The notes under the pieces: model-generated
The model's database searches: none
Told to the model about the DNA's origin: nothing
The model's input: only the letters and a program-made list of their open reading frames with translations
Part shown: piece by piece, positions 13,833-18,763 of the stretch
How the letters are laid out: every line of letters starts with the position of its first letter
Position numbering within the stretch: position 1 is the first letter of the stretch
Position numbers and translations under genes: made by a program
Source of the DNA: a plasmid
Strand: one strand, 5' to 3'
DNA length: 32,029 bases
Sequence record: NZ_CP094937.1

Positions 13833-14241
13833 ATGAGTAAAATTTTTAATTTTTTAAAAATAAAAAAAGGGGATAAATTAATTTTTTACAAGGTTTTTGT
13901 ATGGATATTTTTAATATCAATTATATTTAATTGTATTATTAGCGGAACGTATACTATTATCTCATTTATAGAGGAATCAAAAAAAGATAAACTAGTTTTT
14001 GAAGTTATTAAAATAGATCAAACAACTAAATCTCTTGAAGTTGATGTGCATACTAATTTGCCAAATAATATAGAAATAGCTCTATCTGCAAAGCCAGTTA
14101 AAGACTTGAATAAAATAGGTTTTTCAGAGTCAGGATTAGGTATCTATGGGATTGGAAAAGTTAATAATGGTAAAGCTCATATTAAATTTCAAGGATTAGG
14201 GAAATCAGGAAAGTCATTTGTTATATGTAATACTCCATATA
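13833..14241 (+). pseudogene. 5' part (136 codons, N-terminal TM helix) of a membrane-protein gene split by the Tn3-family insertion. The listed ORF 13833..14300 reads on into the transposon IR
   Basis: Removing 14242..18763 (the transposon plus one TSD copy) joins ...CNTPY in frame to TINASIFLNN... of the ORF at 18764..19878. Confidence 0.7.
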
Positions 14242-14294
14242 GGGGGGAGGACGACATACGTGTAAAAATCGGCCACTTAATTTTGAAACCATTG
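14242..14294 (+). repeat. Tn3-family left terminal inverted repeat (53 bp; similarity continues, degenerate, to about 14315)
   Basis: ggggggaggacgacatacgtgtaaaaatcggccacttaattttgaaaccattg. Confidence 0.9.
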
Positions 14295-14355
14295 AAGTGA
14301 CCGATTTACATAGATTTTTATATATTATGTACTAAATTCTTATAAATAGCTATAT

Positions 14356-14862
14356 CTAAAGTTTAATTTCAAATTGATTATACAAATTACCATTTTTTTC
14401 ATGACTTTTAAAGAATACTCCATTATTATTTAAAATAACTTTTTCAGAGCGTATATTAGCTTTAGCACAATTTAATATAACTTTATCAAGCCCAATTTCT
14501 TTTGCATGCGGTAAGGCTAATTCTAGTATTTTATTTCCATATCCATTACCTCTATGTCTTGGAGCAATATCATACCCTATATGACCATCAAAAGGAACAT
14601 TCCCATGTCTAATTCTAATAGAGCCTAATACTTGTTCTTTATCATTTACCAACCAGAAACTAGAACAAGGAACATATCCTTCAGGAAGGTCAACACCTTT
14701 AGCATTATTGTTAAGTTTACTTACATATTGTTTAAAATCTTTATAGGCATCTCTATAAACATACATGTACTCTGTATCCCCTGATACCTTGTAGTCATTA
14801 ATATATTCTAAAAAGCTATTTTCATATTTTATACTTGGTATTTCCAATCTAATATTCTCCAT
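14356..14862 (-). CDS. GNAT-family N-acetyltransferase (passenger gene inside the transposon)
   Basis: Motif RHRGNGYGNKILELAL (acetyl-CoA-binding Q/RxxGxG/A). 168 aa. Confidence 0.75.
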   Translation of the reverse strand: MENIRLEIPSIKYENSFLEYINDYKVSGDTEYMYVYRDAYKDFKQYVSKLNNNAKGVDLPEGYVPCSSFWLVNDKEQVLGSIRIRHGNVPFDGHIGYDIAPRHRGNGYGNKILELALPHAKEIGLDKVILNCAKANIRSEKVILNNNGVFFKSHEKNGNLYNQFEIKL

Positions 14863-14995
14863 ATAAATTTCCCCCTTTATTTACTCTTGACCATAAAAAC
14901 TTAATATTTAGAATTTTTATATTATTATAGCATTAAACTCTAATACTTTTAACTATTCTCTATAAAATGGTTAATGATTTATAAATAAAATACAT

Positions 14996-15010
14996 TATGA
15001 TATAATCATA
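14996..15010. promoter_or_regulatory. Candidate res subsite I (palindrome TATGAT-ATA-ATCATA) in the intergenic region upstream of tnpR
   Basis: Read directly. In Tn3-family elements the res site lies upstream of tnpR. Tentative. Confidence 0.3.
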
Positions 15011-15699: not shown

Positions 15700-15724
15700 T
15701 TTATTTTAAGAAGGACTGACATGA

Positions 15725-18679
15725 ATGGCATTAATAAATAAGACAATTTATCCAAAATTAAAGAAAGTATTAACCAAAGAAGAATTATCTAGATTTTTCA
15801 CACCAACAGAAGGTGAAATCACATTTGCTAAGTCTGAGGTTAAAGGAGATTTAAATGTATTTTCATTCTTGATTTATTTAAAAACCTTTCAAGCTCTAAA
15901 TTATTTCCCTATGATAGATGAAATTCCAATAAGCTTAATTAGGCATATGAAGGAAGTATTACATATTAGAAAAAAGATAAAACCTGAATTTAAAGATAGG
16001 TCTATTACTAGATATAAAAAGAGCATCAGAAATTATTTAAATATAATCTCTGATAGAGATGTAATTTTAGCGTTGACGAATGATGCTGTAAGTGAGTATG
16101 AGCCAACGCTTGAAAATATTGAAGATGTATTTAATGCAGTTTTAGAAAAACTAATTAAGAATAATTGTGAACTACCTGCATTTTCAATACTTGAGAGATG
16201 GATAAAATCAAAACAAAATGAAATTAACGATAGAATATTTAAGTATATTTCAGATAATCTTAGCAAAGAAGATAAGGATTTACTAGATAGCATATTAACA
16301 ACTACGGATAGTAGTTTTACTAATTTCAATTATATAAAAGAATTACCTAAGAGCCCAAGTTTAACTCATATAAAAGCAGTTCAGGCTAATTATAATTATT
16401 TAAAAGAAATAAATATTGGTAAAAGTCTTGTAAATACAATATCACCTTCTAAAGTTAATAAGTTTACGACATTAGCAAACTCTTTAACAGCCCCAGAAAT
16501 AAGAAAGTTTTCAGATGATAAAAGATATACTTTAATGATTTGTTTTATATATAAAAGCTTTATAAAAACTGGTGATGATTTAATAACAATGCTTACTAAA
16601 AGAATTAGTAAAATGCATAGTAAAGCAAAAGATGATATGAAAGAAACTACAGAAAATCAACGTTCAAAGTCTGAAAATGCAGTAAGCATACTTCATCAAA
16701 TATTACTTTTACCTGAGGAATTAAGAGGCGTGGATTTTGAACAAAATGTAAAATCTATTATTGAAAAAGAAGGTGGTCATAGTAATTTACTGAGTGATTG
16801 TGAGGTACTAACTGCATATCACAACAATAATTATTATCCGTTACTACCAAAGCGTTTTAAGAGCCACAGGAAGACTTTATTTGAAATAATTAAAATGATA
16901 CCTATAAAGTCTAGTAATAAGGATAGTTCTCTTATGAAAGCAATTGAGTATTTATTAAGTTGTGAAAATAAAAAATCTGATAATATAGATGCAAATGTAG
17001 ACTTATCTTTTGCTAGTGAAAAGTGGAGGAAGTTCGTAATTACAAAAAATAATAAAATAGAAGTTTTTATAAGAAAGCATTTTGAAATATGTATATTCTC
17101 ATATATTTCATCTGAATTTAAAACAGGAGATTTATGTTCTGAACTATCAGAAGAATATGCAGATTATAGAAAACAACTATTGCCTTGGAATGACTGTATA
17201 CCACTACTTAATGATTATTGTAATGAAATGAACTTGCCTAACAATCCTAAAGATTTTATTGAAAGTTTAAAGTCTCAATTGGATAATAAAGCCAAAGATG
17301 TAGATAAAAACTATCCTGAAAATAGTGAAATAGTTATACATCCTGATGGTGAGGTTGTTTTAAAGAAGAATAAGAGTACTAGAAATCTAATTAAAATAAA
17401 AGAATTTAAAAGGATTCTTGAGGAAAAAATGCCTGAGCGTAATATAGTAGAATCTATTTGTAAAGTCGAGAAACTTCTAAATTTCACAAAACACTTTGGA
17501 CCTTTATCAGGTTCTGAACCTAAGTTATCAGATGCTCCATCTAGATATGTACTTCTAACCTTTGGATATGGCTCTAATTTAGGAGCTACACAGACTTCAA
17601 AACATGTTAAAGGTTCTGTTACTCCAAGAGAAATGCAATTTACCAATCAAAGACATATAACTTCTGAAAAATTAGAAAAAGCTATGGTTGATGTAATTAA
17701 TGAATATAATAAATTGCCAATTCCTAAACTGTGGGGTGATGCAAATACTGTATCAGCAGATGGGACCAAGTTAGAGCTATATGATGAAAATTTACTTTCA
17801 GAATATCATATTAGATATGGTGGCTACGGAGGAATTGCTTATAACCATGTATCTGATAGATACATAGCTTTATTTAGTCATTTCATACCATGTGGAGTAT
17901 GGGAAGCCGTTTATATAATTGATGGTTTACTTAAAAATAAATCTGATATTCAACCAGATACAGTACATGCAGATACTCAAGGTCAATCTGTTACAGTCTT
18001 TGCACTTACCCATCTTTTAGGTATTAAGCTAATGCCTAGAATAAGAAACTGGAAAGACCTAAAGTTTTATAGACCATACAAAGAATCGAAGTATAGCCAT
18101 ATAGATTCATTATTTAAAGATACTATAAATTGGGATATTATAGAGACTCATTTTGAAGATTTAATGCAGATTGTGTTGTCTATTAAGTCAGGTAAAATAC
18201 TACCGTCAACTCTACTTAGAAAATTAAATAATTATAGCAAGAAAAATAGGTTGTTCCAGGCGTTTAGAGAGCTTGGAAACGTGGTTAGGACTATTTATTT
18301 ACTTGAATTTATTTCAAATATTAGATTAAGGGAAAAAATCACTGAAAGTACTAATAAAACTGAAGCATACAATGCTTTTATGAAGTGGATTTTATTTGGA
18401 GGAGATGGTGTTATTCGTGAAAATGACTTAGATGAACAAACTAAAGTTGTTAAATATAATGAGCTCTTAGCAAATATATTGATATTCCAAAATACCGTTG
18501 ATATGATGGATGCTATTAAGAAACTGAATAATGATGGAATTGAAGTATCAAAAGAATATATAAAAAATCTAAGTCCTTATTTAACAAGCCATATAAAGAG
18601 ATTTGGAGAGTATACAATAGATTTAGATGGTGAAATTGAACCTATAGCGAGTTTTGAAATGGATAAATTTCTAAAATAA
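15725..18679 (+). CDS. tnpA: Tn3-family DDE transposase TnpA (984 aa)
   Basis: N-terminus LTKEELSRFFTPTEGEITFAKSEVKGDLNVFSFLIYLKTFQALNYFP matches the Tn3 TnpA N-terminal (DUF4158-type) domain. Size and tnpR-tnpA gene order fit. Confidence 0.85.
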   Translation: MALINKTIYPKLKKVLTKEELSRFFTPTEGEITFAKSEVKGDLNVFSFLIYLKTFQALNYFPMIDEIPISLIRHMKEVLHIRKKIKPEFKDRSITRYKKSIRNYLNIISDRDVILALTNDAVSEYEPTLENIEDVFNAVLEKLIKNNCELPAFSILERWIKSKQNEINDRIFKYISDNLSKEDKDLLDSILTTTDSSFTNFNYIKELPKSPSLTHIKAVQANYNYLKEINIGKSLVNTISPSKVNKFTTLANSLTAPEIRKFSDDKRYTLMICFIYKSFIKTGDDLITMLTKRISKMHSKAKDDMKETTENQRSKSENAVSILHQILLLPEELRGVDFEQNVKSIIEKEGGHSNLLSDCEVLTAYHNNNYYPLLPKRFKSHRKTLFEIIKMIPIKSSNKDSSLMKAIEYLLSCENKKSDNIDANVDLSFASEKWRKFVITKNNKIEVFIRKHFEICIFSYISSEFKTGDLCSELSEEYADYRKQLLPWNDCIPLLNDYCNEMNLPNNPKDFIESLKSQLDNKAKDVDKNYPENSEIVIHPDGEVVLKKNKSTRNLIKIKEFKRILEEKMPERNIVESICKVEKLLNFTKHFGPLSGSEPKLSDAPSRYVLLTFGYGSNLGATQTSKHVKGSVTPREMQFTNQRHITSEKLEKAMVDVINEYNKLPIPKLWGDANTVSADGTKLELYDENLLSEYHIRYGGYGGIAYNHVSDRYIALFSHFIPCGVWEAVYIIDGLLKNKSDIQPDTVHADTQGQSVTVFALTHLLGIKLMPRIRNWKDLKFYRPYKESKYSHIDSLFKDTINWDIIETHFEDLMQIVLSIKSGKILPSTLLRKLNNYSKKNRLFQAFRELGNVVRTIYLLEFISNIRLREKITESTNKTEAYNAFMKWILFGGDGVIRENDLDEQTKVVKYNELLANILIFQNTVDMMDAIKKLNNDGIEVSKEYIKNLSPYLTSHIKRFGEYTIDLDGEIEPIASFEMDKFLK

Positions 18680-18705
18680 AAAAATCCTGTGTAAATCGGT
18701 CATAC

Positions 18706-18758
18706 CAATGGTTTCAAAATCAAGTGGCCGATTTTTACACGTATGTCGTCCTCCCCCC
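18706..18758 (-). repeat. Tn3-family right terminal inverted repeat (53 bp)
   Basis: Its reverse complement equals IRL with one A/G difference. Confidence 0.9.
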
Positions 18759-18763
18759 ATATA

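Follow-up and report, generated by a model that had tools for sequence, protein, structure and literature searches.

Organization of the element

The stretch of DNA analyzed here (hereafter the window; record NZ_CP094937.1, 32,029 nucleotides) is plasmid pHD0315_2-4 (CP094937) of Paraclostridium bifermentans HD0315_2, the backbone of which is related to small Paraclostridium plasmids. Between positions 14242 and 18758 it carries a 4,517-bp element that splits a gene of 507 codons. With a probability of roughly 0.93, we read this element as a complete, autonomous Tn3-family transposon, apparently unnamed, that is active now or was until very recently and that would move by the stepwise mechanism proposed below. 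From left to right, the locus comprises the following features (IR, inverted repeat; aa, amino acids):

13833..14241, plus strand: 5' part of the target gene, codons 1-136 of the disrupted 507-aa gene (from the list of open reading frames, in-silico excision, and the match to protein P0001 and contig L004, both described below)
14237..14241: left copy of the target-site duplication, ATATA, 5 bp
14242..14319, plus strand: left end, IR-L, GGGGGGAGGACGACATACGTGTAAAAATCGGCCACTT..., with a near-perfect core of 53 nt, similarity extending to 78 nt, and a palindrome at 14266-14278 / 14295-14307
14356..14862, minus strand: GNAT N-acetyltransferase, 168 aa (Pfam Acetyltransf_3, 1.7e-11; Acetyltransf_1, 6.6e-11)
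15002..15089, plus strand: candidate res, 88 bp, made up of site I, a 34-bp spacer, and site II (from the repeat pattern and cross-species conservation)
15002-15014 / 15017-29: site I of the candidate res, an inverted pair of 13-bp half-sites forming a 28-bp palindrome, ATAATCATAACTT-AC-AAGTTTTGATTAT
15064-76 and 15077-89: site II of the candidate res, two direct half-sites, ATGGTCATAACTA and GTAATCATAAATG
15121..15699, plus strand: tnpR, small serine recombinase (resolvase) of 192 aa with a YARVS motif (Ser9) and a C-terminal helix-turn-helix (Pfam Resolvase, 4.8e-32; HTH_49)
15725..18679, plus strand: tnpA, Tn3-family DDE transposase of 984 aa with DUF4158 and DDE_Tnp_Tn3 domains (from Pfam, NCBIfam, and the alignment with Tn4430)
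18681..18758, minus strand: right end, IR-R, which begins 2 bp past the tnpA stop codon and has a subterminal palindrome as in IR-L
18759..18763: right copy of the target-site duplication, ATATA, 5 bp
18764..19878, plus strand: 3' part of the target gene, codons 137-507 (from the list of open reading frames and in-silico excision)

The longest inverted repeat between 13500 and 19500 has its arms at 14242-14319 and 18681-18758 (78 nt, 91%). An earlier reading of this DNA, made from the sequence alone (the sequence-only reading), had described 53-bp IRs with one mismatch and weaker similarity further inward, and this description is exact: when the arms are compared base by base, the sole difference among the first 53 nt is at position 38 (52/53 identical), three mismatches follow, and similarity then resumes at positions 57-78 with four mismatches. 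The tips of both IRs begin with GGGGGGAGGACG and are GGGG-initiated; for a 27-nt core of the IR, 100 shuffles gave 0 expected matches. The same reading had placed a minus-strand GNAT gene, a resolvase gene, and a 984-aa Tn3-type transposase between these ends, and the open reading frames (ORFs) and their Pfam and NCBIfam matches are as expected for all three.

Members of the Tn3 family generate 5-bp target-site duplications and often carry passenger genes, and their IRs are usually about 38 bp long. The present element combines a large DDE transposase with GGGG-initiated IRs of at least 38 bp and a 5-bp target duplication, in agreement with the family assignment of the sequence-only reading. 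Its TnpA reaches 688 bits with the transpos_Tn3 equivalog model of NCBIfam, for which the cut-off is 500 and of which it covers positions 2-952 of 954; with Pfam DDE_Tnp_Tn3, the score is 482 bits (1.5e-144; positions 3-389 of 389). Residues 139-965 align with the transposase of Tn4430 (PDB 7qd4; 7.7e-79), and D680, D750, and E880, located in the SADG, HADT, and NKTEA motifs, are conserved between the two proteins. To our knowledge, structures have been solved for no other Tn3-family transposase than that of Tn4430 (PDB 7qd4-7qd8).

The element is apparently a previously unnamed member of the family. A variant of 92.7% nucleotide identity with the order res-tnpR-tnpA-IR-R is found in a contig from a Romboutsia metagenome-assembled genome (MAG; L010, 1-4973), which opens precisely at site I of res. 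Perhaps the assembly simply broke there; alternatively, res may be where differing left arms (passenger modules) are attached in that population. After this variant, the next-nearest transposases are only about 50% identical and are found in Bacillus and other Bacillota genomes; an IR search within 4 kb on either side of one such Bacillus relative found none.

The insertion site and its unoccupied allele

The element landed past codon 136, splitting the 507-aa gene. As the sequence-only reading had predicted, in-silico removal of 14242..18763 fuses 13833..14241 to 18764..19878 in frame, with ...VICNTPY followed directly by TINASIFLNN... at the junction; the single ORF obtained, which starts at 13833, encodes 507 aa and not the approximately 508 that had been announced. 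The description of the transposon as inserted in-frame is correct insofar as excision restores the frame, but the insertion itself truncates the gene: the present 5' ORF runs into IR-L and stops at 14300, for a product of 155 aa.

The uninterrupted gene, which that reading had suggested should be sought in databases, exists both as protein and as DNA. In a large protein collection, a 507-aa protein (P0001) shows 100% identity across 100% of the restored sequence. A Logan contig of 3,694 bp (L004, run ERR11172915) matches window positions 12512..14241 joined to 18764..20727 without gaps and with 100.000% identity, and its junction holds ATATA once. This contig is the exact empty site, an unoccupied allele from an independent sequencing run. 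The protein collection and the Logan contigs were the sole sources of the empty site, and a tblastn search of the plasmids in PLSDB with the restored 507-aa protein returned no match. In addition, four more distant homologues of full length (511-513 aa; 54-58% identity; one of them from a Romboutsia MAG) align unbroken across the junction, and residues P135, Y136, I138, and A140 at the junction are invariant in this alignment.

The target protein itself has no family match in Pfam or NCBIfam. It is predicted to be a membrane protein on the basis of one N-terminal hydrophobic helix (residues 17-50 in a low-confidence AlphaFold2 model, which was built from a five-sequence alignment and has a mean predicted local distance difference test score of 56.7 and a predicted template modeling score of 0.34). 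In the NCBI annotation, the 3' part of the gene appears as a 326-aa fragment (P0002). A GTG at 18724, within IR-R, starts an ORF of 384 aa (18724-19878) in the same frame as this 3' part; judging from the sequence, the transposon end could thus supply a start for a truncated product of the target gene. A 58%-identical homologue of the 507-aa protein is encoded at 7576-9111 of another Logan contig (L005, run ERR11042496, 15,193 bp), where its neighbors (ResIII/RE_endonuc, N6_N4_Mtase, Mrr_cat, DUF4391, and an SNF2-type helicase) form an island resembling those of restriction-modification or defense.

Identical copies in the strain and in other sequencing runs

When the 4,517-bp element was compared with PLSDB by megablast, three further full-length copies were found, all 100% identical, on pHD0315_2-2, pHD0315_2-3, and pHD0315_2-6. 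The element is therefore present on four of the six plasmids of HD0315_2, once per replicon. The three other copies are flanked by TTATA, TATTA, and ATATA, each a perfect 5-bp duplication. The flanks of the four copies are mutually unrelated: identity ends exactly at the IR tips, and no common flanking sequence was found beyond the tips among the four. Because all four copies have perfect 5-bp duplications and the empty site has a single ATATA, the identical pentamers that the sequence-only reading had noticed at 14237..14241 and 18759..18763 are a real target-site duplication.

Outside this strain, a Logan contig of 4,503 bp (equivalent to 14249-18751, 100% identical) occurs in 15 samples, and another run yields a second contig that encodes exactly the same TnpA; the identical element was thus found in at least 16 sequencing runs. 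Since the flanks are base-for-base equal to the unoccupied allele and the copies of the element do not differ from one another, the insertion is judged to be recent, in accordance with the sequence-only reading, which had argued for a recent insertion of an intact element. The presence of one identical copy per replicon, with four in one cell, is consistent with copy-in transposition and target immunity.

The GNAT passenger gene

The 168-aa acetyltransferase matches only generic families. No NCBIfam family scores above its cut-off (ArsN1a reaches 17 bits for a cut-off of 170) and the best PDB match is 3t90 (E = 3.8e-4), so that a resistance function cannot be claimed. Paraclostridium plasmids and MAGs commonly encode GNAT homologues with 58-70% identity. 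A 92%-identical relative (P0008) lies on a contig (L056) among DUF4003, DUF3885, and PNP_UDP_1 genes, with no transposase nearby. The DNA homology between this contig and the transposon is restricted to 14352-14885 (534 bp, 91.6%), that is, to the coding sequence and the ribosome-binding region. The most fitting reading of the GNAT gene is that of a single-gene cassette of about 0.53 kb that has been captured, in line with its description as a passenger by the sequence-only reading.

Toxin-antitoxin modules beside res are known from Tn3-family elements. The GNAT gene might likewise be a functional module, for example the toxin of a GNAT/ribbon-helix-helix toxin-antitoxin pair or a regulator of transposition; its promoter region adjoins the candidate res, and the four copies and the contig from 15 samples have all kept it. 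This retention says nothing about selection, because the copies of the element are all identical. Besides the GNAT gene, only antisense or overlapping ORFs of at most 50 aa were found between IR-L and res, and none of antitoxin size. Furthermore, the 92%-identical gene stands alone among unrelated genes, with homology ending at the borders of the cassette, and the Pfam matches are generic. For these reasons, a functional module is quite unlikely, and we retain the reading of the gene as a passenger.

The resolvase and a candidate res site

The tnpR gene lies within the IRs, 25 bp upstream of tnpA and in the same orientation. Among solved structures, its product is closest to the Gin invertase (1.4e-21), followed by the gamma-delta resolvase (6.8e-19), the Tn3 resolvase (5.9e-18), and Sin (2r0q; 1.6e-7). 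Immediately upstream, we infer from the sequence that 15002-15089 is a candidate res for the resolution of cointegrates. A weight matrix of its four half-sites has no further strong match anywhere in the element, and both blocks are conserved inside mini-elements of P. sordellii and Terrisporobacter, which are described below. This three-species alignment is the sole independent support for the candidate site. Promoter-like hexamers for tnpR (plus strand) and GNAT (minus strand) overlap site I; by analogy with Tn3 and gamma-delta, it is plausible that the resolvase regulates its own expression at res. In length and layout, the candidate, in whose 88 bp a spacer of about 34 bp separates the inverted repeat of site I from the direct repeat of site II, resembles the res of Sin from Staphylococcus aureus plasmids; the resemblance is one of layout only. 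The Sin res itself measures 86 bp and has, besides site I, an HU/IHF site and a site II of direct repeats (PMC2428073).

In the available parts of the paper on the genome of this strain, the resolvase gene is labeled "hin" and the transposase gene "tnXo19"; the gene pair was seen, no transposon was described, and its copies were read as the spread of a phase-variation invertase that aids immune evasion (PMC9449513). In a follow-up paper, Tn3 transposases are mentioned for several plasmid groups (PMC10665999). The consulted portions of the two papers describe neither the IRs, duplications, and boundaries nor the GNAT passenger, res, or empty site (PMC9449513; PMC10665999).

On the interpretation of the strain paper, the recombinase would be a Hin-type invertase, merely linked to the transposase (PMC9449513). 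The best structural match is indeed an invertase, slightly better than the gamma-delta resolvase, but small serine invertases and resolvases are inseparable at these E-values. Moreover, tnpR lies inside the IRs next to a Tn3-family tnpA, behind a single res-like site. Neither the 88-bp segment nor its site-I palindrome is repeated in the window, each of the other copies likewise has a single one, and there is consequently no inverted pair of sites that would bound an invertible segment; the same site also travels with the IRs in the mini-elements. A Hin-type invertase is thus very unlikely. Because there is a single recombination site per element, within a Tn3-type transposon, the sequence indicates that the "hin" genes linked to the transposase are resolvases of a Tn3-family resolution module and that the label is unsupported.

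A second serine recombinase, of 201 aa, is encoded at 26319-26924 (minus strand), near a Rep3-type replication initiator (28075-29166, minus strand). It is probably the plasmid's own gene for multimer resolution or a "hin"-labeled gene, and it probably accounts for the fact that hin was reported on five of the six plasmids, as against four linked to the transposase.

Hairpins at the ends and a solo end

Each end contains a subterminal palindrome (IR positions 25-37 and 54-66). Folding was carried out on window positions 14250-14324 and 18676-18750. The RNAs leaving the element, past the stop codons of tnpA and GNAT, fold with -18.0 and -18.9 kcal/mol (z -3.3 and -4.3, respectively), followed by UUUUU; those entering it fold more weakly (-11.1 and -14.9 kcal/mol; z -0.7 and -3.8), and U-runs follow there too. 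The Romboutsia variant retains the end hairpin (-22.5 kcal/mol, z -6.8). A simple terminator scan of 14150-18850, limited to loops of 3-8 nt, found 0 sites; the subterminal hairpins have longer loops. Our hypothesis, based on these predicted structures, is that the ends may act as built-in terminators or insulators; alternatively, the palindromes may constitute a second transposase-binding motif. A relative in C. perfringens (L009, 7001-7080) has an analogous end palindrome of different sequence, and the ends of the mini-elements are without one.

The window also contains a solo IR-like end at 23119-23149 (minus orientation), GGGGGGAGGACGAGATATGTGTAAAAATAGG, which has three mismatches in the 27-nt core and diverges past about 31 nt. 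With the orientation of IR-R and at 4.4 kb downstream of it, this end is probably the relic of a related Tn3-family element. In principle, IR-L and this solo end could define a larger mobilizable unit of 8.9 kb, a suggestion for which orientation is the sole evidence. Similar solo ends are found about 1 kb downstream of the element on pHD0315_2-6 (L003, ~11607-11634) and in the Romboutsia contig (L010, ~4667-4751).

Miniature relatives

IR-like sequences were found on plasmids of P. sordellii, Terrisporobacter, C. difficile, and C. perfringens. Two of the loci are gene-less mini-elements with the order IR-res-IR:

L006 6000-6271: mini-element of 272 bp, P. sordellii pCSTC1 (BK010450)
L007 7000-7178: mini-element of 179 bp, Terrisporobacter pTVTCOM2 (CP154627)

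In both, the IR copies are inverted, the IRs and res blocks match those of the transposon, and there is no gene for TnpA or TnpR. Their right IR differs from that of the window element at positions 23-28, which points to a related but different transposon as their parent. [quoted passage not shown] The pCSTC1 mini-element and tetA(P)/tetB(P) are separated by about 1.1 kb.

Mobility and proposed mechanism

It could be argued that the element is an immobile relic that reached four plasmids by homologous recombination or by segmental exchange among related plasmids, as the small plasmids of HD0315_2 do have backbone segments in common. This is highly improbable: the four junction contexts are unrelated and homology ends exactly at the IR tips, the 5-bp duplications are different or independent, and the ORFs are all intact, with the catalytic residues conserved. 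The weakest alternative holds that the ATATA pentamers are AT-rich background and that the flanking ORFs are unrelated genes that merely seem to fuse; the window does contain 226 ATATA (7 per kb) in a plasmid of 25.8% GC, but the chance of this explanation is practically nil, since it is ruled out by the existence of the exact fused protein (P0001) and of the exact empty-site DNA (L004), by homologues that are contiguous over the junction, and by the perfect 5-bp duplications at 4/4 independent copies (chance match of the flanks, p ~0.003 each, ~7e-11 jointly). The two outcomes that the sequence-only reading had named as refuting it are thus both decided in its favor: the flanking ORFs belong to a single gene, and the pentamer is a genuine duplication.

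No observation conflicts with the core of the interpretation that we favor, an active Tn3-family transposon with its own resolution system; three points weigh against parts of it. First, the weight matrix for res was built from the same four half-sites that it recovers, and its specificity is partly circular. Second, TnpR is nearer to Gin and to the gamma-delta/Tn3 resolvases than to Sin, which makes the Sin-like layout of the site an analogy. Third, no matching 5-mers flank either mini-element at any plausible boundary.

With these points in mind, the following mechanism can be proposed. In a first step, the DDE transposase would bind the GGGG-initiated IRs and direct replicative, copy-in insertion at 5-bp targets rich in A and T; what is observed are four identical copies with their 5-bp duplications, and the replicative route is taken from knowledge of the family. 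In a second step, the serine resolvase would resolve the cointegrate at the 88-bp res immediately upstream of tnpR, as suggested by the sequence pattern and its conservation across species. Third, resolvase bound at res probably also represses the divergent promoters of tnpR-tnpA and GNAT. Fourth, the 0.53-kb GNAT cassette rides in the left arm as a passenger, in keeping with the 92%-identical gene observed outside transposons.

A broader reading, offered tentatively and in our view somewhat doubtful, would join these observations into a Tn3-family lineage of Peptostreptococcaceae/Clostridia that has not been described before. Its 78-nt ends would carry a bidirectional hairpin/U-run insulator, which would terminate both transcription leaving the element (after tnpA and GNAT) and transcription entering it, and its res would be a compact, Sin-like site of two subsites. 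This lineage would be the parent of IR-res-IR TIMEs on plasmids of P. sordellii, Terrisporobacter, and C. difficile, which the TnpA/TnpR pair studied here could mobilize and resolve in trans. If this is true, the elements of these three hosts would be the first res-bearing TIMEs noted in Gram-positive anaerobes.

What the present case documents together is an occupied site, its exact unoccupied counterpart, four copies that are identical but have independent duplications, and a non-mobile, source-like copy of the GNAT gene. The element is of an ordinary kind, and the known workings of the Tn3 family are unchanged by it. Its interest lies in a Tn3-family element that appears to be actively spreading among many plasmids of an emerging gut pathogen. 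The ends and res-bearing mini-elements of related type on plasmids of clostridia suggest a small family. Some of its members are neighbors of genes for tetracycline resistance or toxins, which could be mobilized by an active transposase of this type.

Elsewhere in the window, an ORF of 1,049 aa (7107-10256, minus strand) has UvrD-like helicase/AAA_19 motifs and C-terminal TPR repeats, and adjoins a ParA gene (6008-6814).

Comparison with known systems

The ends of the element, at 53-78 nt with a subterminal palindrome, differ from the usual Tn3-family ends of about 38 bp. With Tn4430 from Bacillus thuringiensis, the element has in common an alignable TnpA, the conserved catalytic acidic residues, and the 5-bp target duplication. 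The resolution systems are different: in Tn4430, as is generally known and as the tnpI annotation indicates, cointegrates are resolved by the tyrosine recombinase TnpI, whereas a serine resolvase is found here.

The pCSTC1 and pTVTCOM2 mini-elements resemble IS101 and TIME244 in being short, gene-less, bounded by IRs, and furnished with res blocks; IS101 and TIME244 are TIMEs with functional or putative res (PMC13367494). Unlike the TIMEs of that paper, the mini-elements are hosted by Gram-positive anaerobes, which receive no mention in it.

In overall architecture, the element is comparable to its nearest annotated relatives, which are unnamed elements on plasmids of B. cereus and B. thuringiensis (for example, pBFI_1). 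Like them, it has a TnpA of about 980 aa with DUF4158 and DDE_Tnp_Tn3 domains; as on pBFI_1, a small serine resolvase gene lies directly upstream of tnpA in the same orientation, with one or more passengers on the opposite strand to the left of tnpR. GGGG-initiated IRs and an AT-rich 5-bp target duplication are also listed as common to the two. In contrast to these Bacillus relatives, from which its TnpA has diverged to only about 50% identity, the present transposon resides in a host of the Peptostreptococcaceae.

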